Assembly (NCBI GenBank): GCA_964022095.1
Contig: CAXHZO010000011.1
Span: 14,481-78,480 of the forward strand
DNA from: an uncultured Arcobacteraceae bacterium
Lineage (GTDB): Bacteria > Campylobacterota > Campylobacteria > Campylobacterales > Arcobacteraceae
Length of the DNA stretch: 64,000 nt
Direction of reading: 5' to 3'
In this document: positions 6,533 through 48,493 of the stretch, piece after piece
How the letters are laid out: each line of letters starts with the position of its first letter
How positions within the stretch are numbered: position 1 is the stretch's first letter
Notes under the pieces: model-generated
What the model was told of the DNA's origin: nothing
The model's input: only the letters and a program-made list of their open reading frames with translations
Database searches by the model: none
Made by a program: the position numbers and the translations under genes

Positions 6533-6533
6533 T

Positions 6534-13313: not shown

Positions 13314-13356
13314 TATAAAAAGTTAAGTACCATTATTTGGTATTTAACTTTTTATA
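13314..13356. repeat. 19-bp inverted repeat upstream of the dynamin operon
   Basis: TATAAAAAGTTAAGTACCA-TTATT-TGGTATTTAACTTTTTATA, one G-T mismatch. Confidence 0.8.
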
Positions 13357-13372
13357 TTTTAGGGAGAGAGAT

Positions 13373-27820: not shown

Positions 27821-29918
27821 TGATTTAATAAACCTACTTAGTGAAAAAACAAAACTTTCAGATAAAACCATACACAACATCATCAAACTACTTGATGAAG
27901 GTTGTACTATTCCTTTTATTGCAAGATACAGAAAAGATTACACTAATGGTGCAACTGATGAAGAATTAAGAATTTTTGAAGAGACATATAACTATTTTGA
28001 TAAGTTTTTGCAAAGAAAAGAAGAGATTAAAAATATACTAAAAGAGAAAAACTTTTTAGATGATAGGGTTTTAAAAAATCTAAATGAAGCAAAAACACTA
28101 CAAGCTTTGGAAGATATATATACTCCATTTAAAGATAAAAAATCTTCAAGAACAAGTAGTGCAATAGAAAATGGACTAGAACCACTAGCAAATATAATTC
28201 AATCTATGAAATACTCAAAAGAAGATGTAGAGTATAAGTCAAAACAGTTTTTAAATAAAAATATAAAGACAACTACTGATGCAATAAATGGTGCAAAAGA
28301 TATCATAGCCCAAAGATATGCAGATGATTTTAAATCAAAAGAGGTTTTAAGAAACCTAATATCAAATTGGGGAAACTTAGAGATAAAAGAAGCAAAAGAG
28401 TTTGATAAAAATGGTGTTTATGCAAACTTTGCAAATACAGTTGAGAAAATAAAATATATAAAATCACATAGAATCTTAGCAATTTTAAGAGCAGTAAATG
28501 AAAAGCAACTAAGTATAAAAGTAGATATTGATGAAAAGCATATTTTAGAAAATATCAAAAAATACAAAATTCCATCACATGCAAACTCTTCAAAAGATAT
28601 AGTTTTTGATGCATACAAAGATGGATTAAAAAGACTTTTGCTTCCTAGTTTAAAAAGAGAAGCAATCAATAACCTAAAAGAAAAAGCTAGCCTAGAAGCT
28701 ATCGAGCTTTTTGGGAAGAACCTAAAAGAGTTACTCCAAACAGCTCCACTTGTAAATCAAGTAATCTTAGGAATGGATCCTGGATATAAAACTGGATGTA
28801 AACTTGCAGTAATTGATGAAAATGGAAACTACCAAGATAGTAGTGTTATATATCCTACAAAACCAAAAGAGGATATAAAAACATCTTCAAAAGTAGTACT
28901 TGAACTAATCAAAAAATACAACATCACTTCAATAGCAATTGGAAATGGAACAGCTTCAAGGGAAACTGCGCAGTTTGTAAGTGAACTAATCACTCAAAAT
29001 AATCTAGAAATAAACTACGCAATAGTTAGTGAAATAGGAGCTAGCGTTTACTCTGCTTCAAAAATAGCTATACAAGAGTATCCAAACTTAGATGTTACCA
29101 TAAGAGGAGCTATCTCAATAGCAAGTAGACTAAGAGACCCAATGGCAGCCTTAGTTAAGATAGACCCAAAATCTCTTGGAATCGGACAGTATCAACACGA
29201 TGTAAACCAAAAAGAGTTAGAGAAAAAACTAGAAAACATCACTATAGATTTAGTAAATAAAGTAGGAGTAGATATAAACTCTGCTTCATATAAACTTTTA
29301 TCTTTTATCTCAGGAATATCTGAAAAACTAGCTAAAAACATAATAGAACATAGAGCCAAAATCAAAAACTTCACTTCAAAAAAACAACTTCTTGAGGTAA
29401 AAGGAATTGGTGCAAAAGCATATGAGCAAGGTGTTGGATTTTTGAGAATCAAAGATGGAAAATCTATTTTAGATAATACTGGTATTCACCCTGAAGATTA
29501 TGATTTAACTGATAGGATACAAAAGAACTATGAATTAGAAAAAATAGTTGATTTTGAAAAAGTAGCAAAAGAGTTAAACACTACACCACTAAAACTAAAA
29601 GATATAGTAACAGAACTTTTAAAACCTGGATATGATGTAAGACAAGAGTTTAATCAAGTAAAGTTTTCAAGTGATATTACAAATATAGAAGATTTAAAAG
29701 AGGGTTTTACCTTAAGTGGAATAGTTAGAAACATCACTGATTTTGGAGCTTTTGTAGATATAGGACTTAAAAATGATGCCCTACTTCATATCTCACAAAT
29801 AAGCCAAAAAAGAATCTCACATCCAAGTGAAGTTTTAAGTATAAATCAAAATTTAGAAAATATAAAAGTACTAAGTGTAGACTTAGAAAAACAAAGAGTA
29901 GGTCTTAGTTTAAAATAG
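27813..29918 (+). CDS. tex: Tex-family RNA-binding transcription accessory protein
   Basis: TIPFIARYRK, GMDPGYKTGCK, GNGTASRET, HhH and S1 domain (NITDFGAFVDIG). Confidence 0.93.
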   Translation: MTNDLINLLSEKTKLSDKTIHNIIKLLDEGCTIPFIARYRKDYTNGATDEELRIFEETYNYFDKFLQRKEEIKNILKEKNFLDDRVLKNLNEAKTLQALEDIYTPFKDKKSSRTSSAIENGLEPLANIIQSMKYSKEDVEYKSKQFLNKNIKTTTDAINGAKDIIAQRYADDFKSKEVLRNLISNWGNLEIKEAKEFDKNGVYANFANTVEKIKYIKSHRILAILRAVNEKQLSIKVDIDEKHILENIKKYKIPSHANSSKDIVFDAYKDGLKRLLLPSLKREAINNLKEKASLEAIELFGKNLKELLQTAPLVNQVILGMDPGYKTGCKLAVIDENGNYQDSSVIYPTKPKEDIKTSSKVVLELIKKYNITSIAIGNGTASRETAQFVSELITQNNLEINYAIVSEIGASVYSASKIAIQEYPNLDVTIRGAISIASRLRDPMAALVKIDPKSLGIGQYQHDVNQKELEKKLENITIDLVNKVGVDINSASYKLLSFISGISEKLAKNIIEHRAKIKNFTSKKQLLEVKGIGAKAYEQGVGFLRIKDGKSILDNTGIHPEDYDLTDRIQKNYELEKIVDFEKVAKELNTTPLKLKDIVTELLKPGYDVRQEFNQVKFSSDITNIEDLKEGFTLSGIVRNITDFGAFVDIGLKNDALLHISQISQKRISHPSEVLSINQNLENIKVLSVDLEKQRVGLSLK

Positions 29919-29936
29919 AAAAATAAAAGGAAAAAA

Positions 29937-30203
29937 ATGCAAGATATAAAAACACAACTAAAAGAGTTAATTGACGAAACAATGATTCCAGAAACAATGG
30001 ATTATATAGAAGAATTAAAAGTTTTAAAACAAAATAACAAAGCTACACAAGATGATTTAAACGCCATTGAAGAGATGCAGTTCTTTTTAGAAGAGTTAGA
30101 ATCTGTTGTAACTGCAATAGAAGAAGATAAAATCTCAGATGAAGAAGCACAAGAGATTTTTACTAAAATTGAAAGTATGATTGAGGAACATCAAGAACAT
30201 TGA
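29937..30203 (+). CDS. Small acidic hypothetical protein
   Basis: AAAAGG RBS, followed by a terminator hairpin. Confidence 0.7.
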   Translation: MQDIKTQLKELIDETMIPETMDYIEELKVLKQNNKATQDDLNAIEEMQFFLEELESVVTAIEEDKISDEEAQEIFTKIESMIEEHQEH

Positions 30204-30205
30204 TT

Positions 30206-30230
30206 AAAAACTAGAGAGAAACTCTAGTTT
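30206..30230. repeat. 25-bp direct repeat, left copy (terminator hairpin) at the CRISPR-Cas locus boundary
   Basis: AAAAACTAGAGAGAAACTCTAGTTT, identical to 36844-36868. Confidence 0.9.
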
Positions 30231-30231
30231 C

Positions 30232-31849
30232 TAATTAACCTACTCTCAAATCCCCATTTGATATAATACAAAACCAGTAAATTTCATGCCTTCGTAAGTT
30301 TTAACCTACTCTCAAATCCCCATTTGATATAATCAAAGCATTCAGGAATTGGCTGTCCTTTTGTTTTAACCTACTCTCAAATCCCCATTTGATATAATCA
30401 AAACATTTGAAAGTAATCACCATCTAAAGTTTTAACCTACTCTCAAATCCCCATTTGATATAATTGTTCTAAATTTGTTTGTAAAACCATTGCTGTTTTA
30501 ACCTACTCTCAAATCCCCATTTGATATAATTATATCACGAATATGAACGCAGAAAGCTTTGTTTTAACCTACTCTCAAATCCCCATTTGATATAATCTAA
30601 GTTCTAATTGGCAATATTCGGAAGTAGTTTTAACCTACTCTCAAATCCCCATTTGATATAATGTTGTAGTTTTGTGCTTTCAGTTCGCGTTAGTTTTAAC
30701 CTACTCTCAAATCCCCATTTGATATAATATTATGATAATAGTCGGCACTAATTCTTATGTTTTAACCTACTCTCAAATCCCCATTTGATATAATTTAATA
30801 GCTTAATTGTTATTGATGAGGCACAGTTTTAACCTACTCTCAAATCCCCATTTGATATAATTTGCTTTCTTGTTTCTTCTTCAAATACGTTCGTTTTAAC
30901 CTACTCTCAAATCCCCATTTGATATAATGATTACTTTGCTCAAGAATTAGCGTTAAGGGTTTTAACCTACTCTCAAATCCCCATTTGATATAATTCATTC
31001 TTTAATGTTCTCTGGAATTCCCATGTTTTAACCTACTCTCAAATCCCCATTTGATATAATATTTGAAGTCCCATACCATCTAATGTCAGTGTTTTAACCT
31101 ACTCTCAAATCCCCATTTGATATAATCCCATCTTTCTTTTCGTATACATTAGTTAGTTTTAACCTACTCTCAAATCCCCATTTGATATAATATATATTTT
31201 CCAATTGCATTGTTTAAGTTTGTTTTAACCTACTCTCAAATCCCCATTTGATATAATTAGAACCTTGGCAGAAAAAGATGATTTGCGTTTTAACCTACTC
31301 TCAAATCCCCATTTGATATAATAAATAAAAATAGATATTTATCGGAAATTAGTTTTAACCTACTCTCAAATCCCCATTTGATATAATGGGAGCAGGAACA
31401 TGGATAGTGGTTTACTTGTTTTAACCTACTCTCAAATCCCCATTTGATATAATGGGAGCAGGAACATGGATAGTGGTTTACTTGTTTTAACCTACTCTCA
31501 AATCCCCATTTGATATAATTTGTTATTGACTCAAGATTATCAATATCCCGTTTTAACCTACTCTCAAATCCCCATTTGATATAATTTCTTAATTCGAGAG
31601 ATGCATTAGTATCTTGTTTTAACCTACTCTCAAATCCCCATTTGATATAATAACAAGAATTTAAAGAAAACAATAGTAGTTGTTTTAACCTACTCTCAAA
31701 TCCCCATTTGATATAATTCAAAAGCTAGAAGTAAGTTCTTGAAAGATGTTTTAACCTACTCTCAAATCCCCATTTGATATAATTTTAGATGTATTTCAGA
31801 TATATTTATGATGGTTTTAACCTACTCTCAAATCCCCATTTGATATAAT
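30232..31849 (+). CRISPR. Type II-C CRISPR array: 25 repeats (36 bp) and 24 spacers (29-31 bp)
   Basis: Repeat GTTTTAACCTACTCTCAAATCCCCATTTGATATAAT; first copy (30232-30267) differs in its first 3 nt; last copy 31814-31849; orientation from tracrRNA complementarity and the embedded TGATATAAT. Confidence 0.99.
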
Positions 31850-31864
31850 AGAGTAGATTAAAAC
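31850..31864 (-). repeat. Inverted partial CRISPR repeat directly after the last repeat
   Basis: Minus strand GTTTTAATCTACTCT vs repeat start GTTTTAACCTACTCT (14/15). Confidence 0.85.
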
Positions 31865-31897
31865 TTCGATTTTATAGGGTTTTCAAGTCTAAAAACA

Positions 31898-32248
31898 CTA
31901 AAAAACAAGTACAGTTTGTACTTGTTTTTCTACTTTTTCTTCGGGTTTTTCTCTATAATTTTCTATTACTAACATATTTTTATATTGTGCTTCTGTAACT
32001 TTTACTACTCTTATAGAACCATTTAAAGGTGAAGCTAGTTCAATCTTTTTTTCATATTTTTGTGCGATTGCCAAACTTTTGCAAAATCTTATATAAACTG
32101 AATATTGAAACATTATAAAACCCATTTCTAAAAGTTTATTTCTAAATTTTGTATATTTTTTTATATCTTTTTTTGTATTTGTTGGCATATCAAACATTGC
32201 AAATAAAACCATCTTTCTATACCTACTTTCTTGTGATATATTTTTCAT
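31898..32248 (-). CDS. cas2: CRISPR-associated endonuclease Cas2
   Basis: MVLFAMFDMPT...FRNKLLEMGFIMFQYSVY, type II Cas2 signature. Confidence 0.96.
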   Translation of the reverse strand: MKNISQESRYRKMVLFAMFDMPTNTKKDIKKYTKFRNKLLEMGFIMFQYSVYIRFCKSLAIAQKYEKKIELASPLNGSIRVVKVTEAQYKNMLVIENYREKPEEKVEKQVQTVLVF

Positions 32249-33117
32249 AATTTAAATAATATTAATTCTTCAGTTTTTGATAAGCAAATTGATTGATAAT
32301 TTGCAACCATAAGTTTCATACAGTTTGATACAGTCATATTTTTATTATCATAAGTAACAGTTTCCTCTAATAGTTTTAATAAAGCTATTTTAATAGATGA
32401 ATTTAATTCCATATCTTTTTTTATAGACCTTGCAACGTAGTTATCTACTATTGGTCTAAAAGGTTCTATTAAATCATCTGCTAGATTAAAAGAATTTAAT
32501 TCACTACTGTGATGAATACCAAAAGCTGGATTTAAACCATAGGCTATTAAATATCTACAAATAGAACTTCTAAATATTGCATAACCAAAGTTTAGTACTG
32601 AATTGTTTATATTTTCAGGATTATTTCGTGAAAAATCTTTACCAAATAACTCTTTAAAATAATACGCTGCTGCAGTTGCCTCAATATTTTCTTTATCATT
32701 TGATTTTATTCTAGGAATTAATAAATCAATATATTCATAGTTTTTATTTAGTTTTTTTAATATTTTGGATTGATTTCTCACTTTTGAAGCGACTATATCT
32801 TTCCATATTTGATTTAGTTTTGGTTTTGAAACTAGGATTTGAGACTTTTGTATTTTTGTTGTTCTACTGTTTTTATTTATTCCAAGAAGTATGGAACTAG
32901 GCATAAATTTTTCATCACAAAAGATTACATTGATATTTGATTTAGTTAATTGAGATAGAAGTGCAGAGGTGATGGTAGTTTGCTGGTTTTCTATGACTAT
33001 TGTATCAATATCATCAAAACAGACAGTTGTTTCAAAGTCATCAATTTTTACAGATATTAGATTATTTTTATAGCTTAGATATGATTTGTTTTTTATATAT
33101 AGTTTTTGAAGAGACAT
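32245..33117 (-). CDS. cas1: CRISPR-associated endonuclease Cas1 (type II)
   Basis: EATAAAYYF, NSVLNFGYAI, GIHH, NLADDLIEPFRP. Confidence 0.97.
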   Translation of the reverse strand: MSLQKLYIKNKSYLSYKNNLISVKIDDFETTVCFDDIDTIVIENQQTTITSALLSQLTKSNINVIFCDEKFMPSSILLGINKNSRTTKIQKSQILVSKPKLNQIWKDIVASKVRNQSKILKKLNKNYEYIDLLIPRIKSNDKENIEATAAAYYFKELFGKDFSRNNPENINNSVLNFGYAIFRSSICRYLIAYGLNPAFGIHHSSELNSFNLADDLIEPFRPIVDNYVARSIKKDMELNSSIKIALLKLLEETVTYDNKNMTVSNCMKLMVANYQSICLSKTEELILFKL

Positions 33118-33217
33118 TTATAAACTCCTCAAAAAGAAGAGCTTATAAAAAAACTTTTGCGGGACTAAATCGTCCCTTGTTTTAACCAGACTATCAAATC
33201 CCCATTTGATATGAGAA
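33117..33217 (-). ncRNA. tracrRNA (ends approximate)
   Basis: Anti-repeat at 33179-33212, followed on the - strand by AAGGGACGATTTAGTCCCGC (nexus-like hairpin), a U-tract and a second hairpin; TATAAT on the - strand at 33224-33229. Confidence 0.9.
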
Positions 33218-33229
33218 TATTTTATTATA

Positions 33230-36200
33230 TTATTTCTTAAACTCTTCATAGGAAATATCTCCTTGATAATTTATAAATACTTTTCTTGCAATTGTGTCTT
33301 TATTCAATGTTACTTTTATTTCAACTTTAGATTTTGTATTTAAAGGTTTTAATTTAATTTTATTGTTTGAACTTGATATATCTCCTCCACCATTAAAAAT
33401 AAAATACTCTTTAGTAGATTCTTTTAAATTTTCAATTTCTAGAATATCACCTTTTTGAATATTGATTTTGTCTTCGTAATCTTTTATAAGTTCTATTTTC
33501 TTTTCATTTATTTTTGGAGGAATATTGTTTTTTATAGAAGAAAAATAGTTTAAACCTATAACTTGTCCTTTTGAAGTATTAAATAAATCTACATTTAATG
33601 TAGTGTCATTTAGTTTTGCGACAAAGGGAATATCTTTTTCTTTTAATTCTTTATATACATCAAGTGATAATCTTTGTAATCTATCTTTTTGTGTTTTATC
33701 TGTGATTATTATACTATCTGCTTTTGAGGCACTTTTAGTTTTTACTTTTATATTTCTAACTATTTGTTTTAGACCTTTTTTTGTAATAAAAAAGCAAGGT
33801 TCGTTTTGTAAAAACTCTTCACTTTTTTTCTGTTCATCTAGTCTAGATATTTTATCTTTTATAGCTATTGTTTGCTCTGTATCTTCATAGTTTTTTTTGT
33901 TTGGTAGTTCACCTTTTAATTCATCTATCTCTTTTTTAATATTTGAAATATTTTCTCTTGTAGTTAAAAGTTTATTTTTATATTCTAATAATGCATTTCT
34001 AATATTTTCTTGTTTTGGTAAATCTAAATGAGAGATCAAATCTTCTACTTTTTTATTTACCTCTTTATCACTTATATCTTTTCCATAATTATCAAATAAA
34101 AGATTTTTATCGATAGCTTTTTTATCAATTTGATAAAATTCTTCTTTCTCTTTATCTAAATATAGTTTTACATTTCCATCTTTAAAGCCTACTACATTGT
34201 CTCTTTTTTTGATTATTGGGCAAATATATAATTCGTTGTTTTCATATTTTTTAACTTTATCTTTTATAAATTCTACTAAATTAGTTCCATCACTAGTAAC
34301 TGGAAATCTAGTTTTGATTTTTTCAATTATCTTCTTTGTTTTAAATCCATTTTCGTTTTGTTTAAAAAAATCATTTAAACCTTTTTTTGCTGATTCATTT
34401 AAAAGAGAAATTACTATTGCATCAATAGTATGATGATAGTTTGTTTTCCTATCTTTTTTATCATCTTCATTTTTAGGCTGTACTTTATCAACACCCCAAA
34501 GTCTTTTTAATTCACTTATTGCTTTTCCAGTAACTCTTATTACATTTTGATTTGTTTCACCTTTTCCATATTCATTTTGTTTAGGATATAAATAGTGTTC
34601 CAAATAATTAGCTATAATCTTTGTAGCACTTCTAGTATCATTTAAAAACCTATCTTCAAGATTTTCTCTTTCCCAATTTTTATTTATATTTTCTTCATCA
34701 GTTAGCCAAAAAACTTTACTATCGTTTGTTAATTCTTTTTTAACTCTTGAAGTAAACTCCTCCCAAATATTTTTTGATTTTAGATAAGTGATTGGATGTG
34801 TATTTGATTTGTCCTGATTATGTTTTTTTAGAACTAATATTTTATTTTTATATGAATTTATCCATATTTTACTTCTTGGGATAAAATGTTCTACTTCTGT
34901 TTTGTGTTCATCAAGTGCATCTTCTAAAGTTAAAGGCTCCCCACTATAAAGACATTTTGATTTTTGTTCAATTAAAAGTCTAGCTCTTTCTATATTTTTT
35001 CTACTTAATTCATAATCTTCAGCTAAAAGCAGTTTCTCAGAAGCTTTTATCTCTTTTCTACTATTTGCTTGAGCTTCTTTGATTTGCTCTTCTTCTTTTT
35101 TTGAGTTTAACTCTCTGGCAGTTTCAATGATTATTTTATCTATTTTCCCATATTTAAATATTAAATCATTTACTAATCTTCTTAAAATTGAAATTACTCT
35201 TTTTACATTTGGAGAAACTAAAGGCTGATAAAATATATGCTCTCTTTTGAAGTTCTCAATATTTTTTTCAAGCCAAAGTAAATCTTTTTCTGATGGATTT
35301 AATGGTGGTAAATAAGAATAAGGTTTCATATCTAAATATTTTCTAAAATATCCTAATTCAACAAGAGTATCGTGATATGATTTTTCAAATCTCATTTTTT
35401 GTAAAATCTCTTCAATGAAACATAACGAAAAAGAAGCATATGTGTCTTTTGTTCCTTTTGAAACTTTTGATAATTCTTTGATTATTTCATTACTTAAAAG
35501 GTTTTCTTTTTCAACTTTTTTAATCTCTTTAAAAATTTGTTCTTTATTTACATAATAAAATATTTTCTTTAAAATCTCTGAATATAAGTCTTTATGTGTT
35601 TTAAAAATATCAAAATCAGTCTTTTTAAATATTTCCAATAACTGTGTATGAATTCCAATATCAAGAATAGTTTCATCTTGTTTATTTGAAGTTTTAATTT
35701 TTATATTTTTTAGTCCAGCTTTATCAAAAATATTTTTAGTATTTATTGTTTTTGTTGGTGGTTTTTTTAACCATAACTCTACTGTATTATCAATTTGTTC
35801 TTTTGTTGGAGTAAATAGTTCTCCGGTTTTATCATTAAAAATTAAATTACCTAAAATAGAATTCTCAATTCTTTGTCTAATAGTTAACTCAATACTAGAA
35901 ATATGAGATTTTGGAATTCTTTTTTGAGGCTTTTTATGGAATTTATTATAGAAACTACAAAAACCAACCATATCTTCCATACTTTTTAATGCTCTTTGTT
36001 CAAAAATACCTATTGAGTTTTCATTTACACCATTAATAAGCTTATTCTTAAAATTATCATATATTTCAACAGTTTTAAAAAGCTCTTTATTTTCTTTTTG
36101 TGATTCTAATAATATTTCTAATTCTTCTTGCCATAAATCTCTATCAAGTGAATTATTATAATTGTCTTTTTTATTTCTAACTGCAATATTTGTAAAACCA

Positions 36201-36736
36201 TTATTTTCTAAATTTAACTTTTTATTTAACAAAACAGAGGAAGGAAGAGATAAATCATTTTTTACATATAGTTCTTTATTGTTAGAGATAGCTTCATTTA
36301 TCACTCCATCATCTTTTGAATCTTCTGTTTTAAATTGATTAGAATATCCCCTTCTTGTAATGATAGAATAAAGTGAAAAAGTGAAATCATCTTTCGATAA
36401 ATTTTTACCATTAACGGCTTCTTGCCTTAAAATATATGGATTTTTATCTTTTGATAATTTGTTAAAATATTTAATTGGATTAGTAAGAATAGATTTTTCT
36501 GCTAGTTCAAAACTACTCAATAGTTTTCTAACTATTTCATTTCTTCTACTTTTTCTTTCATTTCTTCTTCGGCTACTTCTAAAACTTCTTCTATCCTCTG
36601 CTTTAATATATTCACTAAATATAACACTATTTGAAGACAGTTCTTTAAAAACTGTTTGTTCATTTTCTATTTTTATTTCATTAAGTGAATAACCAATACT
36701 ATTTGTACCAATATCTAATCCTAATACCTTTGACAT
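33230..36736 (-). CDS. cas9: Type II-C Cas9 (1168 aa)
   Basis: RuvC-I LGLDIGTNSIG, Arg-rich bridge helix, IETARE, HNH EHFIPRS...NKILV...NQDKSN, RuvC-III HHTIDA; no csn2 or cas4 in the locus. Confidence 0.98.
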   Translation of the reverse strand: MSKVLGLDIGTNSIGYSLNEIKIENEQTVFKELSSNSVIFSEYIKAEDRRSFRSSRRRNERKSRRNEIVRKLLSSFELAEKSILTNPIKYFNKLSKDKNPYILRQEAVNGKNLSKDDFTFSLYSIITRRGYSNQFKTEDSKDDGVINEAISNNKELYVKNDLSLPSSVLLNKKLNLENNGFTNIAVRNKKDNYNNSLDRDLWQEELEILLESQKENKELFKTVEIYDNFKNKLINGVNENSIGIFEQRALKSMEDMVGFCSFYNKFHKKPQKRIPKSHISSIELTIRQRIENSILGNLIFNDKTGELFTPTKEQIDNTVELWLKKPPTKTINTKNIFDKAGLKNIKIKTSNKQDETILDIGIHTQLLEIFKKTDFDIFKTHKDLYSEILKKIFYYVNKEQIFKEIKKVEKENLLSNEIIKELSKVSKGTKDTYASFSLCFIEEILQKMRFEKSYHDTLVELGYFRKYLDMKPYSYLPPLNPSEKDLLWLEKNIENFKREHIFYQPLVSPNVKRVISILRRLVNDLIFKYGKIDKIIIETARELNSKKEEEQIKEAQANSRKEIKASEKLLLAEDYELSRKNIERARLLIEQKSKCLYSGEPLTLEDALDEHKTEVEHFIPRSKIWINSYKNKILVLKKHNQDKSNTHPITYLKSKNIWEEFTSRVKKELTNDSKVFWLTDEENINKNWERENLEDRFLNDTRSATKIIANYLEHYLYPKQNEYGKGETNQNVIRVTGKAISELKRLWGVDKVQPKNEDDKKDRKTNYHHTIDAIVISLLNESAKKGLNDFFKQNENGFKTKKIIEKIKTRFPVTSDGTNLVEFIKDKVKKYENNELYICPIIKKRDNVVGFKDGNVKLYLDKEKEEFYQIDKKAIDKNLLFDNYGKDISDKEVNKKVEDLISHLDLPKQENIRNALLEYKNKLLTTRENISNIKKEIDELKGELPNKKNYEDTEQTIAIKDKISRLDEQKKSEEFLQNEPCFFITKKGLKQIVRNIKVKTKSASKADSIIITDKTQKDRLQRLSLDVYKELKEKDIPFVAKLNDTTLNVDLFNTSKGQVIGLNYFSSIKNNIPPKINEKKIELIKDYEDKINIQKGDILEIENLKESTKEYFIFNGGGDISSSNNKIKLKPLNTKSKVEIKVTLNKDTIARKVFINYQGDISYEEFKK

Positions 36737-36768
36737 AATTAGCCTTTAATAATTGTAATAATAACTAA

Positions 36769-36806
36769 ATAATAACATAATAATGACTCAGAAATGACTC
36801 AATTTA
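36769..36806 (-). promoter_or_regulatory. Putative cas9 promoter: tandem TGAGTCA-N4-TGAGTCA element 6 nt upstream of an extended -10 (TGTTATTAT)
   Basis: 36782-36806 is 24/25 identical to 48461-48485, with the same spacing to the -10. Confidence 0.75.
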
Positions 36807-36843
36807 GAAGAAAAGTAGGATTATAGATTAGAAAAATTGTTAG

Positions 36844-36868
36844 AAAAACTAGAGAGAAACTCTAGTTT
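36844..36868. repeat. 25-bp direct repeat, right copy; terminator containing the RidA-family gene stop
   Basis: AAAAACTAGAGAGAAACTCTAGTTT, identical to 30206-30230. Confidence 0.9.
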
Positions 36869-37245
36869 TTAAATGCAATTACATCAACTTCTACTAAAAC
36901 ATTTTTAGGAAGTGTTTTCACTGCAACTGTAGCACGTGCAGGTGCAGTTTCAGCGGAGAAGTACTCTGCATATACTTCATTAAATGCTACAAAGTTATCC
37001 ATATCTGATAAATAACAAGTAGTTTTAAGTACATTATCAAAAGATGAGTTTGCTTCTGTTAATACTGCTTTTAAGTTTTCCATAACTTGTTTTGTTTGCT
37101 CTTTGATTCCACCTTCACAAATTTCCATTGTTTCAGTGATTAATGGAATTTGTCCTGATAAAAATACTAGCTTCTCAAAAGAAGTTCCTTGGTTATATGG
37201 GCCAATTGCCGATGGTGCTTTATTAGTAGAAATTATTTCTTTCAT
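36862..37245 (-). CDS. ridA: RidA/YjgF enamine-imine deaminase
   Basis: APSAIGPYNQG, SGQIP, PARATVAVKTLPKNVLVE. Confidence 0.9.
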   Translation of the reverse strand: MKEIISTNKAPSAIGPYNQGTSFEKLVFLSGQIPLITETMEICEGGIKEQTKQVMENLKAVLTEANSSFDNVLKTTCYLSDMDNFVAFNEVYAEYFSAETAPARATVAVKTLPKNVLVEVDVIAFKN

Positions 37246-37279
37246 AAAAATCCTTTATATTTTTTAAGATGGTATTATA

Positions 37280-38413
37280 TTAGAATCTTCTTTTTATTAC
37301 AATTATTATTAAAATAATTAAAATAAACCAACCAAAAATTTCAAAGAATTTTTGAACACCAAAAATACTAACTAAAGGCATAGTAAGTATGGGAGAGAAA
37401 AACTGTCCCATAAATAATGAGCTTGTTAGATATCCTGAACTCTTTACTCTTTTTTCTGGTTTTACTAAAGTTAACATCCAAGAAGTTACACAAGTCATTA
37501 GTAAACCTCCACCAAATCCCATCAGTGGCGAAGTTAAGAAAAAGTAATAGACATTATCTATAATTCCAATAATAATAAATCCAATACCAATTACTACTAA
37601 CCCAATGATATAAATAGTACTAAATTTTAGTTTCTTTTTTAACCTTGCAAAAGCCAATGCACCCAAACCATTAAAAACAAAGGCAAGACTTATAATACCA
37701 CCTGCTAATGTTCCACTTGCACTAAAATGATTCATAATCAAAAATGGCATTTGTGTTGGTAAAATATAAAAAATCACCATCAAAATAAATGCTAAAACAT
37801 AAATAAAAAACACTCTATTATCAGCTGTTTCTTCTTCTAATTCTTGATCTTGGATTGGTATTTCTTTTACATATTTTAATACAAAAGGTAAAAGAACAAC
37901 TCCAATAGAATAAATCAAAAATGGATAATGCCAAGAGATATCACTAAGCATTCCTCCACCTGCTACAAATAGCACTCCTCCAAGAGAAGTAAAAGCCATT
38001 TGTACACCCATGAATCTATGTCTTTGCTCACCTTTAAAGTAATCCCCTACTAAAGAAGTAGATACAATCATAAGTATTGCAACAGATATTCCAAATACTG
38101 CTCTTGATACTAATATTTGTTCAATACTTTGTAAATAAAACCCTGCAGTTCCAGTTAGTGAAAAAAGAATCAGTGCAAAAACAGCAGAGTTTTTCTTACC
38201 AATTTTATATACAAAATGCCCTAAAAAAGGCGCTAAAAAAGCTATTGTAAAAGATGGCAAAGTAACTATTAGTCTAGAATATAGTTCTATATTATCTATT
38301 TTAAAAATATCTTTTAAGTGAGGAATCACTGTAATTATTGCAACATTACTCATCATTGTTGTTACTGCTAAAAGTAACAGTGTGAGTTTAGTTAAGTTTG
38401 AGATTTGGTTCAA
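37280..38413 (-). CDS. MFS transporter
   Basis: About 12 hydrophobic segments, MFS pattern. Confidence 0.85.
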   Translation of the reverse strand: MNQISNLTKLTLLLLAVTTMMSNVAIITVIPHLKDIFKIDNIELYSRLIVTLPSFTIAFLAPFLGHFVYKIGKKNSAVFALILFSLTGTAGFYLQSIEQILVSRAVFGISVAILMIVSTSLVGDYFKGEQRHRFMGVQMAFTSLGGVLFVAGGGMLSDISWHYPFLIYSIGVVLLPFVLKYVKEIPIQDQELEEETADNRVFFIYVLAFILMVIFYILPTQMPFLIMNHFSASGTLAGGIISLAFVFNGLGALAFARLKKKLKFSTIYIIGLVVIGIGFIIIGIIDNVYYFFLTSPLMGFGGGLLMTCVTSWMLTLVKPEKRVKSSGYLTSSLFMGQFFSPILTMPLVSIFGVQKFFEIFGWFILIILIIIVIKRRF

Positions 38414-38421
38414 TATTTTAC

Positions 38422-39195
38422 TTAGGAATTATTAAGAAAGAAAAGTTCAAAAGTTCTATTGACTTTATTTAGTACCTCTTCATTTTTTCTTATTAGTTTA
38501 TGGTTTGATTGTCCTGCTTTTACTATCGCTTTTGAGTAGGGAATAACATTTTCATCATCTAAGTATTCATTTACATCTACCCATTTTGCATCTTCTATTT
38601 CATCAGTATCATTTATATTTATTTCAGATGTTAAAGGTTTGGCACAACATAAAATATATAAATTTGATTTATGAAATTGATGTGGATAAAAATGCCCAAG
38701 AGAAACTACAGATTCAAACTGTACTTTTATTCCTGTTTCTTCATATACTTCTCTAATGGCAGCTGTTGAGATCATTTCAGCATCATCAATATGCCCACCA
38801 GGAAGTTTATACCCAATAGTACTGATTTTCTCTTTTATTACAAGAAGTTCATTTTTTTCATTTATAACTACAACCCCTACTCCTAAAGTATGATTTGCAG
38901 CAGTGGGAATAATAGCATTTGGTTTTAATCTTCTTACAACTAAAACATAATCTTCACCGCAAGAGTGAAAAAAGAACTCTTTTTTTGTTGCTATTTGTAT
39001 AAAATTTGATTTTTCAATAGGTATATAAATCCATATCAAAAATCTGTGATTTATAGTCTCTTGTATTAAAAAATCAAGATTTAATTCAAACTCATTTATA
39101 TCATCTGGTAAATCTTTTGCATCAATTGTAAGACCATTATATGGGTCTAATATAGTTTTAAAACACCCTATTTCTTCTACACTTGTATTTTTCAT
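38422..39195 (-). CDS. Nudix hydrolase with N-terminal extension
   Basis: GGHIDDAEMISTAAIREVYEETG Nudix box. Confidence 0.88.
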   Translation of the reverse strand: MKNTSVEEIGCFKTILDPYNGLTIDAKDLPDDINEFELNLDFLIQETINHRFLIWIYIPIEKSNFIQIATKKEFFFHSCGEDYVLVVRRLKPNAIIPTAANHTLGVGVVVINEKNELLVIKEKISTIGYKLPGGHIDDAEMISTAAIREVYEETGIKVQFESVVSLGHFYPHQFHKSNLYILCCAKPLTSEININDTDEIEDAKWVDVNEYLDDENVIPYSKAIVKAGQSNHKLIRKNEEVLNKVNRTFELFFLNNS

Positions 39196-39208
39196 AGACC
39201 TATCTTAA

Positions 39209-39823
39209 CTAAAATGAAATTAAATCTATTAAAGAATAAGCAATATAAAGCATAAGTAAACCAATACCTACATCTAATATTTTCCATGTGATTGGTTTTT
39301 TAAATAGTGGTATTAAAAACCTTGCCCCAAAACCTAACATACTAAACCAAACACTAGAGGCTAAAACTGCACCAAAAAGAAAATATAGTTTTAGACTATC
39401 TTCAATATTTGCACCAATTCCACCAATTAATAATACAGTATCTAAGTATGTATGAGGGTTTAAATACGTAAATACCAAAATCATAGTAATTACTTTTTTT
39501 AAAGGATTAGTTTTAACTTCATCATCAATTTTTAAACTCTCATTTTTTAAAGCTGATTTAAATGATAAAAAAGCATAAGAAACTAAAAATATTATTCCAA
39601 AAATTGCAATTGAATTTATAAGAAGTTGATTACCTTTGATAAAAAAACCTAGACCATAAACACCTAAAGTAATAAGTAAAAAATCAGAGATTACACATAT
39701 TAAAACTGCAGGTAAGACATACTGTCTTAGAAGTCCTAATTTTAGTAAATATGCATTTTGAGCACCTATTGCTACAATCAAAGAGAAGGTAACAATAAAG
39801 CCTTTTAAAAGAATATCAAGCAT
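39209..39823 (-). CDS. LysE/ArgO family amino-acid exporter
   Basis: LIVAIGAQNAY and TYLNPHTYLDT. Confidence 0.9.
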   Translation of the reverse strand: MLDILLKGFIVTFSLIVAIGAQNAYLLKLGLLRQYVLPAVLICVISDFLLITLGVYGLGFFIKGNQLLINSIAIFGIIFLVSYAFLSFKSALKNESLKIDDEVKTNPLKKVITMILVFTYLNPHTYLDTVLLIGGIGANIEDSLKLYFLFGAVLASSVWFSMLGFGARFLIPLFKKPITWKILDVGIGLLMLYIAYSLIDLISF

Positions 39824-40445
39824 TTAGATACATCTTAACTAAACTCACAGTTCCACCAACTATAAACTGTACTGCAATTGCACCAACAATTAATCCCATA
39901 AGTTTAGTAATAATATTTTGTCCCGTTTGTCCAAGATATTTTTTTATATAAATTGAATTTTTTAAAACTAAATAAAGAATTAAGGCATTTACACAAAAAG
40001 CAATTAAAATAGATACCACATCAAGTGCAGTTTGAGCTTGGTGCTTAAAAATAATAATCGTAGTAAATAACCCTGTTCCAAAAGCAATTGGAATACCAAT
40101 TGGAATTATTGCTAATTCTTGATCATCTTTTTTATCATTATTTTTTACATCACCTGTTTTTGGGCCATTTACCATGGAAATTGCCATTAAAATAAGTACT
40201 AATCCACCCATTACTTTTAATGAATTTTCACCTATTCCAAAAAGTTTTAAAATAGCATCACCTGTTATTAGAACTATTATAAAAGCTATTAAAATAGTAA
40301 TTGTTGTTTTAAATGCAATTGAAGATATTTGTGATTTTGTAATATTAGAGCTAAGTAGTGAAAGTGCGATTGCACTTACACCAATAGGATCCATAATAGC
40401 AAAAAATGTAATTGTTTGCTGTAGTAAAAGTGAAGTAAAATCCAC
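39816..40445 (-). CDS. MarC family membrane protein
   Basis: FFAIMDPIG, AIIPIGIP, IITKLMGLI. Confidence 0.88.
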   Translation of the reverse strand: MDFTSLLLQQTITFFAIMDPIGVSAIALSLLSSNITKSQISSIAFKTTITILIAFIIVLITGDAILKLFGIGENSLKVMGGLVLILMAISMVNGPKTGDVKNNDKKDDQELAIIPIGIPIAFGTGLFTTIIIFKHQAQTALDVVSILIAFCVNALILYLVLKNSIYIKKYLGQTGQNIITKLMGLIVGAIAVQFIVGGTVSLVKMYLNA

Positions 40446-41410
40446 TAACTCATTCCACCTTTAGAAGCCATGTTTTTTTCTAGTCTATGACCAATAAAAC
40501 TTAAAACTGAAGTTATACATAAATATAAAAGTGCAACAACAATCCATGTTTCAAAAGGAGAGAAAGTATTTGCAACGATCTCTTTACCAACTTTTGTTAA
40601 ATCTGTAATTGAAATTACAGAAACTAAAGATGAATCTTTCACAAGTGCGATCATTTCTCCAACTAATGTTGGCAATGCTCTTTTAAAAGCTTGAGGTAAG
40701 ATGATATATCTCATAGCTTGAAAATTTGAAATACCAAGTGACTTAGCAGCTTCAAGTTGACCTTTATCAATAGATTGAATAGCACCTCTTAGAATTTCTG
40801 CCATATAAGCACCAAAGAAAATACCAAGTGATAATACACCAGCTACAAAACTTTCTAATCCAAATATATTAGCTACAATAAAATAGAATAAAAAGATTTG
40901 TACAAGTAAAGGTGTACCTCTTACAATAGTAATATAAACCGTTGCGATACTTCTTAAAAAACTCAAAGATGACAATTTCATAAATGCGACTATAATACCT
41001 ATTATAAATGTCAATACAGCAGCTAAAAATGATATCTTAAGAGTCATCCACAGACCGTTTAATATAGGACCTGCTTTTGTTTCAGTTTTAGAAGCAATAT
41101 AATCATATTGATAAATATTGTCTCCAACTTCATAATCAAATGAAAAACTACTATCCAAATTTGTTAGCTCTATCTTTTCATCACCATCAATAAAGTATTT
41201 TCCATTTTCTAATACTAGTTTTCCATTTGCTGGTGCTTCAATACTTATTGTTTCTTCATATACAAAATATTTAGGAACAGAATTCCACTTCCAAACATAA
41301 TTCATGTTTGAAGCAGCCATATAGAAAAAGTAACCAACTACTACATAAAAACATAGAGCAATTAAATGCCCTGTGTTTTTATTTTGTGTCCAAGATTGTT
41401 TTTTAGCCAT
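40445..41410 (-). CDS. Polar amino-acid ABC transporter permease
   Basis: RGTPLLVQ, AEILRGAIQSIDKGQLEAA (EAA loop), KDSSL. Confidence 0.93.
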   Translation of the reverse strand: MAKKQSWTQNKNTGHLIALCFYVVVGYFFYMAASNMNYVWKWNSVPKYFVYEETISIEAPANGKLVLENGKYFIDGDEKIELTNLDSSFSFDYEVGDNIYQYDYIASKTETKAGPILNGLWMTLKISFLAAVLTFIIGIIVAFMKLSSLSFLRSIATVYITIVRGTPLLVQIFLFYFIVANIFGLESFVAGVLSLGIFFGAYMAEILRGAIQSIDKGQLEAAKSLGISNFQAMRYIILPQAFKRALPTLVGEMIALVKDSSLVSVISITDLTKVGKEIVANTFSPFETWIVVALLYLCITSVLSFIGHRLEKNMASKGGMS

Positions 41411-41413
41411 TTA

Positions 41414-42223
41414 CTATTGAACTCTTTTTAACCAAGCTGTATCTTTAAGCCATTTTTCATTTAAGTTGTCATAGAAACCTACAACTTTGTCTTCTTTTAC
41501 TTGTCTTAAGAAGTTGTTTAACCAGTTTAAGAAATCTGGATCACCTTTTCTAATTCCCCAACCTAATGGCTCATAAGTTAATGGTTCATCTAGGTGAACT
41601 AATTTTCCTTTTCCTTTATCACTCATAAATAAAATATTATATGGTTGGTCATATACAAAAGCATCTGCTTTTCCATTTAGTACTTCACTAGCGGCATCTG
41701 CTTCTGTTTCAAAAGTTACGATTTTTGCTTTTTTAAAGAATTTTCTTGTTGCAACTTCACCAGAAACACCAAGTTTAGTAACAATAGTATATTCAGGTTT
41801 ATCTAACTCTTTTGCACTTTTAGCAGAAAGACCTTTTTTCATCATAACAGTTTGTCCAACAACAACATATGGATCAGCAAAGTTAATTTTTAAGTTTCTT
41901 TGTTGAGAAATAGTCATACCAGACATGATGATATCACATTTTTCAGTTACAAGTGCAGCAATAATACCATCCCAAGCAGTAGGAAGTAATTTTAACTTAA
42001 CACCCATTTCTTTAGCCATTTTTTTAGCCATATCTACATCATAACCTATGATTCTTCCCTTTTTGTCTTTCATCTCAAAAGGCATATACCCAGGTTCTAA
42101 ACATACTTGTAATTCACCTCTTTGAATAATTTTATTCAATGTAGAATTCTTCCAAAGGTTAATATCAGCTGCAAACATATTTAATGTTGCAAAAGCCATC
42201 ATTGCTAGTACTATTTTTTTCAT
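41414..42223 (-). CDS. Amino-acid ABC transporter substrate-binding protein
   Basis: Signal peptide, PFE...GYDVD...WDGII...SGMT family-3 SBP pattern. Confidence 0.92.
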   Translation of the reverse strand: MKKIVLAMMAFATLNMFAADINLWKNSTLNKIIQRGELQVCLEPGYMPFEMKDKKGRIIGYDVDMAKKMAKEMGVKLKLLPTAWDGIIAALVTEKCDIIMSGMTISQQRNLKINFADPYVVVGQTVMMKKGLSAKSAKELDKPEYTIVTKLGVSGEVATRKFFKKAKIVTFETEADAASEVLNGKADAFVYDQPYNILFMSDKGKGKLVHLDEPLTYEPLGWGIRKGDPDFLNWLNNFLRQVKEDKVVGFYDNLNEKWLKDTAWLKRVQ

Positions 42224-42250
42224 TTTGTCTCCTTGTTTTTGTTAAATAAA

Positions 42251-42991
42251 TTAGTGAATTAAAATTTCATTTAGAAACTTTTTAGCTCTTTGACTTTTTG
42301 GGTTTTCAAAAAACTCTTTTGGTGTAGTTTCTTCAATAATTACACCCTCATCCATAAATACAATTCTATCTCCAACTTCTTTTGCAAAACCCATTTCATG
42401 AGTTACACAAACTATTGTAAAACTCTCTTTTGCTAAATCTTTCATAACTGAAAGCACATCACCAATAGTTTCAGGATCAAGTGCAGATGTTGGTTCATCA
42501 AAAAGTATAATCTTTGGTTTCATTGCTAAGCTTCTAGCTATTGCAACTCTTTGCTTTTGACCACCACTTAAATCACCTGGATATGAATCTGCTTTATGCT
42601 CAAGTTTAACTTTCTTTAATAAAGACATTGCTACTTCTTGTACATCAACCTTTTTCATATCTTTAACAAGTTGTGGGGCTAAAGTTATATTTTCTAAAAT
42701 TGTCAAATGGGGAAATAAATTAAAATGCTGAAATACCATTCCTACTTCACTTCTAATTGTTTGAAGATTTTTCTTTTTCTCATGAATATCAATATTGTCA
42801 ACAACTATATTTCCATTATCAATATCTTCTAAACCATTAATACAACGAATTAAAGTAGATTTTCCAGAACCACTAGGTCCACAAACTACAACAATTTCAC
42901 CTCGTGCTACACTAAAATCAATATCTTTTAATACATGAAAGTCATCATAATATTTATTGATTTTAGACATAGAGATTATGTTTTCTGCCAT
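42251..42991 (-). CDS. Amino-acid ABC transporter ATP-binding protein (GlnQ-like)
   Basis: [27 protein letters not shown]. Confidence 0.95.
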
Positions 42992-43133
42992 AATACCTCT
43001 TTTTAAAATTTGCTAAGAGCAAATCATACAATAGATAATGTTAATTAAAAATATATTAAATACATAGTTTATATACAATTTAAATACAATTTAAATATTT
43101 TAGAATATAATCCATCTTTTTATTGGAGAAATC

Positions 43134-44015
43134 ATGATTATAAATAAACTGCAATCTTATAAAGCAGACTTATTACTATTGTCTGTTGCTATTGCATGGG
43201 GTGTTACATTTTTAATGGTTCAAGAAGCAATTGATACTACTCCTGTTTATTCATTTTTATTTTTTAGATTTTCATTAGCTTCACTTATTATGTTTGTTCT
43301 TGCTTATAAATTTTTTAGATTTTTTAATATGAAAACACTTTTATATGGAATCATTTTAGGAATATTTTTATTTTCTGCTTTTGCAACCCAAACATTTGGA
43401 CTAGCATATACAAGTAGTTCCATTGTTGCTTTTATCACAGGATTAAATGTAATTGTAGTTCCTTTTTTAGCATACTTACTTTTTAAAAATACCGTAAAAC
43501 TAAATGTATTTATAGCAACTATTCTTGCAGTAATTGGACTTTATATGCTAACTATGAGTGGAACATTAACATTTCAAAAAGGTGAATTTCTAACTTTAAT
43601 TTGTGCAATATTATTTGCACTACAAATTATATTCACTGGAAAATTTTCAAAAGAGGTAAATGTATTTTTATTAGTTTTAATTCAATTAATAACAGTTTCT
43701 GTTTTATCTCTTATTTTTTCACTTGGATTAGATAGTGCAACATTTGATATTCCATATGATTATGCATTTTTTAAAGCAGTTATTATTACTGCAATATTTG
43801 CTACAGTTTATGCTTTTTTAATACAAACATATATGCAACAATTCACAACAGCAACAAAAACTGCAATTATATTTACTATGGAGCCAGTAAGTGCTGGCGT
43901 GTTTGGATACTTTATTGCAAATGAACTACTAACATCAACTCAATTAATTGGTGCATCTATAATTATTTTTGCAACTTTACTTGCAGAAATTAAACTAAAA
44001 AAGAGAAATACATGA
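43134..44015 (+). CDS. EamA/DMT family transporter
   Basis: About 10 TM segments, WG...FRF...EPV EamA pattern. Confidence 0.88.
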   Translation: MIINKLQSYKADLLLLSVAIAWGVTFLMVQEAIDTTPVYSFLFFRFSLASLIMFVLAYKFFRFFNMKTLLYGIILGIFLFSAFATQTFGLAYTSSSIVAFITGLNVIVVPFLAYLLFKNTVKLNVFIATILAVIGLYMLTMSGTLTFQKGEFLTLICAILFALQIIFTGKFSKEVNVFLLVLIQLITVSVLSLIFSLGLDSATFDIPYDYAFFKAVIITAIFATVYAFLIQTYMQQFTTATKTAIIFTMEPVSAGVFGYFIANELLTSTQLIGASIIIFATLLAEIKLKKRNT

Positions 44016-44902
44016 ATTTATTTGGCGCATTAATTTTAACATTTGCAATGTTTATTTGGGGAAGTTCTTTTATTGCTTTAAAAATAGCAATGCAAGACAT
44101 TGGACCACTAACAGTTATATTTTTTAGAATGCTAATTGCATCATTGTGTTTTGTATATTTTATAAAGAGTTTTTTACAATTTAATTTTAATAAAAAAAAT
44201 ATACGATTATTACTTTTATTAGCTTTTTTTGAGCCTTGCTTATACTTTATATTTGAAGCAAAAGCATTACAACTAACAACTGTTTCTCAAGCAGGAATGA
44301 TTACCTCACTTTTACCTATTATTGTAGGAGTTGCAGCAGGATATTTTCTAAAAGAGAAAATCACACTAAGACTTGTAATAGGTGCACTAATAGCCTTAAG
44401 TGGAGCAGTTTTACTTAGCTCAAATGCGACAATCTCAACACAAGCTCCAAATCCAGCTCTTGGAAACTTCTTTGAATTTTTAGCAATGGCTTGTGGTGCA
44501 GGATATACAATAGTTGCACGATATCTTACAAAAGAGTTTTCAGCCTTGTTTATCACTGCATTTCAAGTATTTATTGGTGTAGTTTTCTTTTTTCCAATGT
44601 TTATTTATGAAAGTATGACTATGGAAATGAACTATACGTTTGATGCTATTAGTTCACTATTTTATTTAGGTGTAGTTGTAACACTTGCAGGGTATGGATT
44701 ATATAATTATGCCCTAACAAAAATAGAAGCTTCAAAAGCTGCTATTTTTATATATTTAATTCCTATTTTTTCATTAATATTAGCAAATTTAATACTACAT
44801 GAAAAAATTACTATTTTAGAGCTTGTAGCATCGGCTATAATACTATTTGGAGTATTTATTAGTGAATTTCCTATAAAGAGGTTTATGAAAAACAAAGCAT
44901 AA
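44012..44902 (+). CDS. EamA/DMT family transporter
   Basis: IWGSSF, FLKEKI, LHEKI repeats. Confidence 0.88.
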   Translation: MNLFGALILTFAMFIWGSSFIALKIAMQDIGPLTVIFFRMLIASLCFVYFIKSFLQFNFNKKNIRLLLLLAFFEPCLYFIFEAKALQLTTVSQAGMITSLLPIIVGVAAGYFLKEKITLRLVIGALIALSGAVLLSSNATISTQAPNPALGNFFEFLAMACGAGYTIVARYLTKEFSALFITAFQVFIGVVFFFPMFIYESMTMEMNYTFDAISSLFYLGVVVTLAGYGLYNYALTKIEASKAAIFIYLIPIFSLILANLILHEKITILELVASAIILFGVFISEFPIKRFMKNKA

Positions 44903-44963
44903 TGCTTTTTTCATGCGACTTTTAACTGCTAAAATTTTTAAGAAAAATTAAAGGAGTTAAGAG

Positions 44964-46076: not shown

Positions 46077-46084
46077 GAAAATTT

Positions 46085-47356: not shown

Positions 47357-47381
47357 AAACTAGAGAAATTCTCTAGTTTTT
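47355..47381. terminator. Bidirectional terminator related to the CRISPR-flanking repeat
   Basis: AAAAACTAGAGA-AAT-TCTCTAGTTTTT. Confidence 0.8.
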
Positions 47382-48420: not shown

Positions 48421-48447
48421 TATATTCCTTGTGTAAAAAATTAATAG

Positions 48448-48485
48448 ATTTTACCAAAGAAATGACTCACAAATGACTCAATTTA
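48448..48485 (-). promoter_or_regulatory. Promoter with tandem TGAGTCA-N4-TGAGTCA element 6 nt upstream of an extended -10 (TGGTAAAAT)
   Basis: 24/25 identical to the element upstream of cas9. Confidence 0.75.
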
Positions 48486-48493
48486 TAGATTAT

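Follow-up and report, generated by a model that had tools for sequence, protein, structure and literature searches.

A tandem repeat element adjoining the -10 of a type II-C cas9 promoter recurs upstream of defense, envelope and other genes in Arcobacteraceae

Results and Discussion

The cas9 locus and its surroundings

The window analysed here is a 64-kb stretch of DNA of 24-32% G+C, in which ordinary chromosomal genes (nuo, sdh/frd, citrate synthase, recQ, thyA and folA) accompany a CRISPR-Cas locus. On the minus strand, cas9 (33230-36736, 1168 aa) matches the type II Cas9 model NCBIfam TIGR01865 at 396 bits against a cutoff of 100, and carries the Pfam domains HNH_4 and RuvC_III. Downstream of it (31898..33117) and on the same strand lie cas1 (32245-33117; Pfam Cas_Cas1, 7e-33) and cas2 (31898-32248; Pfam CRISPR_Cas2, 1.9e-13). 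With Cas9, Cas1 and Cas2 present and csn2 and cas4 absent, the locus is of type II-C. A tblastn search of plasmids with Cas9 returned no close ortholog, the best matches reaching 26-31% identity.

The CRISPR array (30232..31849, plus strand) contains 25 repeats, each 36 nt long and with TGATATAAT at its end. This is an extended -10-like sequence, which suggests repeat-embedded promoters reading toward cas2; such promoters are a mark of type II-C arrays. Two adjoining spacers, after the repeats at 31352 and 31418, have the same first 20 nt, and a 143-aa open reading frame called at 31290-31721 is an artefact of reading through the array. A candidate tracrRNA is located between cas9 and cas1 (33150..33215, minus strand), with an anti-repeat at 33180-33215 (repeat-like copy of family D2, 33180-33235), a GGGAC...GTCCC hairpin and a T7 run. 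A TATAAT overlaps the end of cas9 ahead of the anti-repeat, and the T7 run stands directly before the cas1 ribosome-binding site. Since hairpin and T7 directly precede cas1, expression of cas1-cas2 may need read-through. An Rfam search over 29900-49000, which includes the candidate tracrRNA, gave no family match.

The gene upstream of cas9 is of the RidA family (36862-37245), and a hairpin with a U-run is found at its end (36844..36870, minus strand). This hairpin was not flagged by a consensus terminator scan; its RNA fold is -11.9 kcal/mol (z = -5.46), and 0 of 200 shuffles were equally stable. It probably terminates the RidA-family gene, in which case the cas9 promoter would act alone. The element described below lies at the only recognisable proximal promoter of this type II-C operon.

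The second gene of concern here, P0001 (47380-48420, minus strand), encodes a 346-aa protein with an N-terminal signal-like helix, predicted to be secreted. It found no match in Pfam, PADLOC, NCBIfam, PHROGs, PDB sequences or the ESM Atlas, and its family comprises seven members, P0001 included. The AlphaFold2 model is of fair quality (pLDDT 78.2) and consists of tandem beta-sandwiches, for which a fold search gave weak, generic Ig-like or adhesin matches (TM <=0.25). Elsewhere in the window, two dynamin-family GTPase genes are adjacent to each other (13337-17763).

A tandem element at the cas9 and P0001 promoters

The original prediction held that cas9 and a gene 11.7 kb away have a 24/25-nt tandem element in common. 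Both copies were located on reading the sequence: AATGACTCAGAAATGACTCAATTTA at 36782-36806 and AATGACTCACAAATGACTCAATTTA at 48461-48485 agree at 24 of their 25 positions. Read on the minus (coding) strand, each site gives TGAGTCA-N4-TGAGTCA, followed by 6 nt and an extended -10, exactly the geometry that had been described. Each can be written as TGAGTCATTT[C/G]TGAGTCATT, then 7 nt that include TGn, then the -10 hexamer.

Upstream of cas9, the putative regulator-binding element (36782..36805, minus strand) is made up of AAAT, TGAGTCATTTC and TGAGTCATT, the latter two forming 11-nt direct-repeat units, and with the transcription start predicted near 36762, we infer that it covers about -39 to -20. 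It is followed by the extended -10 TG-T-TATTAT (36769..36777, minus strand; hexamer 36769-36774). The second copy (48461..48484, minus strand; AAAT, TGAGTCATTTG and TGAGTCATT) begins 9 nt past the end of an upstream methyltransferase gene (48494-49294) and precedes the extended -10 TG-G-TAAAAT (48448..48456, minus strand; hexamer 48448-48453), with a predicted start near 48441. The start codons of cas9 (36736) and P0001 (48420) lie 32 and 27 nt past the hexamers, each behind a purine-rich ribosome-binding sequence. A promoter scan of the minus strand called neither site nor any other, and no -35-like hexamer was seen at 16-18 nt spacing on reading the sequence.

Within the window the tandem arrangement is rare, and the single heptamer is not enriched (9 copies of TGAGTCA found, 8.09 expected). 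A search for TGAGTCANNNNTGAGTCA with up to 2 mismatches matched only these two sites, each scored on both strands, giving 4 matches where 0.52 were expected; 0 of 100 shuffles reached 4. With TGAGTCATTTNTGAGTCATT and up to 3 mismatches there were 2 matches against 0.09 expected, a count reached by 0 of 100 shuffles. No third tandem copy was found in the 64 kb, even at 3 mismatches. The flanks of the two sites had been called otherwise unrelated, which holds only in part: AAAT stands directly upstream of the element at both, and the 10-mer TAATCTATAA occurs upstream of both at differing distances.

Recurrence in other genomes

A scan for exact matches to TGAGTCATTNNTGAGTCATT, which covers perfect sites only, was run over 185,579 species genomes and returned 53 loci. 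Twelve come from seven Arcobacteraceae/Campylobacterales assemblies, five of the twelve from one MAG; from base composition we estimate about 0.04 chance matches for a few hundred such genomes. The genome of the window is itself not among the matches. When the 51-nt promoter was compared with plasmids by BLAST, the single significant match (E = 1e-6) was to the Arcobacter cloacae LMG 26153 plasmid pACLO, where the site reads aaaaaaaGAGTCATTTGTGAGTCATT-tgttttg-TAAAAT with one mismatch to the element. The same comparison with a phage collection gave chance-level matches only (E ~4). The element is thereby present at 13 sites in 8 further Arcobacteraceae/Campylobacterales genomes or replicons. 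In what follows, the 14 exact sites are the 12 loci plus the two in the window, and pACLO is the 15th site.

At all 14 exact sites a TAnnnT hexamer lies 7-8 nt after the 20-mer. The other 41 loci hold 49 sites, none of which shows this, and in the same DNA the background probability of TAnnnT is 0.07. Across all 15 sites the distance is 7 nt at 12 and 8 nt at 3. Every exact site (14/14) has an open reading frame downstream on the same strand; at 10 of them its listed start is 25-53 nt beyond the 20-mer, and at the other 4 the distance is 134-303 nt. The 303-nt figure belongs to L050, where a DrmD-like helicase gene seems broken near its 5' end (4069-4324): a 15-codon open reading frame occupies the expected start (+41), and the long helicase frame begins 255 nt after it in another frame, which explains the distance. 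Either the MAG assembly has a frameshift here or the gene is a pseudogene.

Conservation extends to positions outside the search pattern. AAA occupies -3 to -1 in 15/15 sites, T is found at unit position 10 in 15/15 first units (position 10) and 13/15 second units (position 21), and G at unit position 11 in 9/15 and 10/15 (positions 11 and 22). The resulting consensus is AAAW-TGAGTCATTTn-TGAGTCATTTg. The hexamer is TATAAT at 10 of the 15 sites, and by eye a G stands at -14 in 13 of the 14 exact ones. Two sites in different Aliarcobacter species (L021 and L035) precede an orthologous PAS gene with 93% amino acid identity, and there the element and -10 are kept while the upstream flank has diverged, which bears out conservation upstream of orthologs. 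No site upstream of a further cas9 was among those found.

A search for degenerate sites with up to 5 mismatches in the window and the 12 loci (about 150 kb) recovered self-overlaps of known sites and chance-level 5-mismatch matches only. The 14 exact sites are perfect by ascertainment, and the absence of imperfect sites from this ~150 kb is unusual for a transcription-factor regulon, which counts against the element as such a site. On these comparisons the tandem is nonetheless a conserved promoter element rather than a chance repeat, and the recurrence shows a predicted cis-regulatory site, conserved in a subset of Arcobacteraceae, that always faces a downstream gene.

Genes downstream of the element

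The original prediction had also proposed looking in relatives for defense genes and WYL regulators behind the motif; among the genes downstream of the 13 further sites, all with the same element, register and orientation, are defense genes and one WYL gene. In the window the genes are cas9-cas1-cas2 and the 346-aa secreted protein. On pACLO they are a NERD-helicase, csx20, cas6 and csm2-5, which make up a type III-A CRISPR locus. Other sites precede a WYL regulator and a dynamin-like GTPase beside type I HsdR (L012), a small secreted protein and an Eco47II restriction enzyme (L013), an Mrr-like nuclease cluster with a MORC/MzaB-like ATPase (L026), and the DrmD-like (DISARM-like) SNF2 helicase with a TmtA-like (Tiamat-like) ATPase (L050). 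The remainder consist of TraT (L042), a CarO-like small outer-membrane protein with TetR and RND efflux (L008), a membrane protein with carbonic anhydrase (L028), SbcD-SbcC (L048), PAS plus chemoreceptor in the orthologous pair L021/L035, a 256-aa protein with a phage-type regulator domain together with an OmpR-type winged-helix protein (L052), and a 55-codon open reading frame at a contig end (L007).

Recognisable defense genes lie behind 6 of 14 independent sites, two of the six being CRISPR-Cas loci of different types, an enrichment that was spotted post hoc and from few sites. A DNA-repair operon is found behind one of 15 sites only, sbcCD at L048, and the regulon is not dominated by DNA-damage genes. 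The element-driven cluster at L012 ends in its dynamin-like GTPase gene (5920-7101; CrfC/LeoBC-like).

Two of the restriction or nuclease sites share a mobile-element backbone (L013, 3990-4600; L026, 3990-4400), with a cI/XRE-like gene and divergent small open reading frames ahead of differing defense cargo. An identical cassette of ~50 nt stands between the diverged cI/XRE-like gene (39% amino acid identity) and the unrelated cargo, in what looks like a cargo hotspot behind a repressor gene.

A PHO-box-like layout and its candidate reader

Each half of the element is an 11-nt direct-repeat unit in which 7 positions are conserved and 4 less so, and the second unit stops 5-6 nt short of the -10. 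If the hexamer is set at -12 to -7, the 18-bp core extends from about -39 to about -22, so that relative to the predicted transcription start the element sits in the place of a -35 at a fixed distance from the -10. Starting from the two window sites, it had been proposed that a trans-acting factor binds between about -22 and -40 and that cas9 is thereby part of a wider regulon, and the 13 further sites in the same register and orientation support both parts of that proposal.

This layout resembles the PHO box, which the available part of PMC4415409 defines as 11-nt direct-repeat units of 7 conserved and 4 less conserved, A/T-rich positions. Both adjoin the -10 and fill the -35 region, the GTCAT core of the Arcobacteraceae element resembles the E. 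coli CTGTCAT, and its gap from heptamer to hexamer is 9-10 bp. In E. coli the gap from PHO box to -10 is roughly 10 bp, and PhoB sits at about -39 to -22. Unlike the PHO box, the Arcobacteraceae heptamer is palindromic and preceded by an invariant AAA, and activation through it is our inference. The Pho regulon proper was rejected, as no phosphate uptake or scavenging genes (pst, pho) were found in any of the 15 downstream operons.

The cas9 -10 agrees with gnTAnaAT, the consensus of C. jejuni sigma-70 promoters; these, in the portion of PMC3847290 available, generally have no -35. In this lineage a missing -35 is for that reason not evidence of an activator. The register of the element to the -10 is fixed, which suggests a stereospecific contact with polymerase and hence activation.

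The best explanation, held with moderate confidence, is a conserved cis site read by an OmpR/PhoB-type regulator that would tie cas9 into a regulon of defense and surface genes. A trans-acting protein, most likely the two head-to-tail DNA-binding domains of an OmpR/PhoB-family response regulator, would bind the tandem element at about -39 to -22 and control RNA polymerase at the adjoining sigma-70-type -10 (gnTAnaAT type) with no -35 hexamer. Less certainly, judging from the fixed register, it would activate by stereospecific polymerase contact. The cas9-cas1-cas2 operon and the 346-aa secreted-protein gene would then belong to one regulon, and in relatives the same regulator's element would serve type III-A CRISPR, restriction and other anti-phage genes, SbcCD and surface proteins.

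Further repeats of this architecture are found on pACLO (NZ_CP053834.1), where four perfect 7-4-7 repeats (L055-L058) with the heptamers TGATACT, TTGTGAT, TTAGCCA and TTGCAAC lie at 117886-117903, 125688-125705, 140148-140165 and 154480-154497, in the same register to the -10 as the TGAGTCA element. Three of the four are 24 nt, 11 nt and 5.6 kb from Response_reg + Trans_reg_C genes, and the genes behind the repeats include a TolC/type I secretion operon, a TonB receptor and an RND efflux cluster. Loci of the same architecture number 8 on pACLO against 1.11 in shuffles and 3 in the window against 0.29, and 0 of 100 shuffles reached the real count in either. Our reading, by analogy, is that the 7-4-7 layout would be a standard OmpR-type docking site in Arcobacter and TGAGTCA the specificity of one regulator. 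Arcobacter genomes are rich in two-component genes, which makes the adjacency of site and regulator weak evidence. The window contains another such repeat, GCTATTA-N4-GCTATTA at 9700-9717 (plus strand), 9 nt before a TAAAAT; the sdh/frd-type operon that starts at 9751 follows closely. This repeat has the same two-unit register as the TGAGTCA element and may likewise be read by a response regulator.

No candidate regulator was found in the window, where Pfam searches of 54 open reading frames (52 of them >=100 aa) returned only an AraC/GyrI-like protein and an orphan histidine kinase. The L052 site lies in a divergent intergenic region beside an operon of DUF1104, an OmpR-type regulator and a histidine kinase, and this divergent regulator-kinase pair is only a lead. 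Its response regulator has no close ortholog on pACLO (best 43% identity), and a search of the other loci, pACLO and the window found nothing closely matching either it or the kinase.

Alternative explanations

Symmetry in the element counts against head-to-tail binding. The heptamer TGAGTCA is a perfect palindrome and the outer flanks AAA...TTT mirror each other as a dyad, so that a symmetric dimer-of-dimers fits almost as well as head-to-tail monomers; in addition, with a -10 near consensus and a generally dispensable -35, the promoters may fire unaided and the bound protein may repress. It is possible, if doubtful, that the palindromic heptamers, one turn apart, are a repressor operator for a symmetric RHH or XRE/cI-like dimer-of-dimers or for a negative OmpR-type regulator. 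Such a protein would block an otherwise constitutive -35-less promoter and release the defense or cargo genes on its inactivation. The L013 and L026 sites directly follow a cI/XRE-like repressor gene, while neither window site adjoins a repressor gene. Repression is also the mode of the sole published response-regulator control of cas9 that we found, CovR in group B Streptococcus (PMC12216829, available in part). TTTg, however, follows both heptamers, which is direct repetition rather than mirroring. Steric block also needs no constancy of register such as the 7-8 nt seen at 15/15 sites, and the pACLO analogues, which are not palindromic, have the same register.

The original prediction likened the geometry to WYL-domain activators of the PafBC type, which would act just upstream of the -10 and induce after DNA damage or infection. 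PafBC/RecA-NDp promoters of Actinobacteria do have an element directly upstream of the -10 and no -35; they are tied to stress-induced genes, and a WYL heterodimer regulates them. Downstream of the L012 site is a gene for a 302-aa HTH+WYL protein (Pfam WYL 5.8e-9, PADLOC WYL 1.2e-28) beside type I HsdR, a WYL protein with 30% identity to it is encoded on pACLO some 19 kb from the site there, and one site is ahead of sbcCD. However, no copy of the element was found upstream of the pACLO WYL gene, a DNA-repair operon follows just the one site of 15, and no WYL gene is among the 54 window open reading frames scanned with Pfam, as had been noted from the start. PafBC recognises a single, asymmetric motif and other WYL regulators recognise inverted repeats, whereas the Arcobacteraceae element is a tandem 11-nt repeat in the PHO-box pattern. 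By analogy with that pattern, and with the same-register pACLO repeats beside OmpR-type genes, a PHO-box-type OmpR/PhoB-family site appears to be the better match, and a WYL activator is improbable. The WYL protein of L012 may instead belong to the regulon, as the site drives its gene.

Many of the downstream genes are accessory or mobile (TraT, restriction behind a cI-like gene, CRISPR, a plasmid), every site is perfect or near-perfect, and L013 and L026 carry the identical ~50-nt cassette. This would be expected of a portable promoter cassette without a dedicated regulator, which spreads with acquired genes and whose repeats serve polymerase or DNA shape directly. We consider it quite improbable: the 5-7 nt between element and -10 and the other flanks vary across sites, which are thus not simple transfers; chromosomal orthologs in two species retain the element; and more than 18 invariant positions plus AAA are far above the information content of any known core-promoter element.

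In S. pyogenes, Cas9 acts as a repressor of its own promoter, and in Francisella it represses a lipoprotein operon; here the second target encodes a secreted protein. Self-regulation by a tracr-L/scaRNA-type guide RNA that targets the common 25-mer to repress the cas9 promoter and an envelope-protein gene is extremely unlikely and close to refuted, since in other genomes the element stands ahead of type III-A, restriction and other genes as well, and a k-mer comparison of its core with 30000-33300 and the rest of the cas locus found no match of at least 10 nt on either strand.

Comparison with known systems and significance

CovR, a regulator of the OmpR family, offers a likeness to the response-regulator reading of the Arcobacteraceae element. 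In Streptococcus agalactiae, according to the part of PMC12216829 available, this two-component response regulator ties cas9 into a wider regulon, repressing the distal promoter of the type II-A operon and linking it to virulence genes. The corresponding tie in Arcobacteraceae would be through a site at the proximal promoter of a type II-C operon, and the partners are other defense and envelope genes. The two kinds of control are thus alike in type, with a different position, predicted sign and set of partners. In enterobacteria, CRISPR-Cas is under envelope-stress or global control by BaeSR and Rcs, and in Serratia by Rsm. The likeness is that one pathway co-ordinates several CRISPR types with surface functions; these pathways differ in using other cis elements or post-transcriptional action, and we know of no promoter cassette common to several defense systems described for BaeSR, Rcs or Rsm.

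Literature searches on TGAGTCA with Arcobacter and on Arcobacter cas9 regulation found nothing, a search for TGAGTCATTT found nothing relevant among the matches listed, and one on TGAGTCA with response regulator and direct repeat found only S. aureus WalKR, in a source available in part. Within that literature, the motif and the regulon composition are new and the class of mechanism is known.

The timing of costly or self-toxic defense expression is poorly understood and is usually studied system by system. Here one easily recognised cis element joins CRISPR-Cas of two types to restriction, helicase-based and surface-exclusion genes within a single bacterial family, and if one regulator reads it, co-ordinated control of the immune repertoire is directly testable. 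We tentatively suggest, well short of an even chance, a lineage-specific 'immune regulon' in which one sensor-regulator pair and one high-information element would switch adaptive, innate and surface-exclusion or envelope genes, and in which mobile elements would adopt the element. The adaptive group would comprise type II-C and type III-A CRISPR-Cas. The innate group would hold the restriction enzymes, the DISARM-like helicase with the Tiamat-like ATPase, the Mrr/MORC-like cluster and the WYL-dynamin module, and the surface group TraT, the outer-membrane protein with RND efflux and the 346-aa secreted protein. Mobile elements would express the defense cargo behind their cI-like gene through the host's element, and so plug it into the host defense circuit. 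If one regulator reads the element, the cas9 of the window would be the second natural case, after CovR, of signal-dependent cas9 transcription and, within the literature searched, the first for type II-C in Campylobacterota.

Related repeats outside Arcobacteraceae

Among the remaining loci of the exact scan, in L022 of Alicyclobacillus ferrooxydans (4001-4174) the 11-nt unit TGAGTCATTGC is repeated head-to-tail at least 16 times, a plain tandem repeat unconnected to a -10. The 256-aa protein of L052 was compared with the DUF4062/HATPase_c_4 proteins of the non-Arcobacter loci and proved unrelated. Those proteins are encoded at six of nine loci examined (L001, L004, L011, L034 and L040, at ~3960-4030, and L053, at ~2000), where two clusters of AAATGACTCA repeats (alignment A4) follow the 3' end of a gene with DUF4062 and/or HATPase_c_4 (or Fic-like_C) domains. 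The hosts include Nitrospirota, ANME archaea, Kiritimatiellia and Verrucomicrobia, among others. AAATGACTCA is the same 9-10-mer as in the Arcobacter element and likewise occurs in defense neighborhoods, the adjoining DUF4062/HATPase_c_4 genes sitting among methylase, SNF2 and endonuclease genes.
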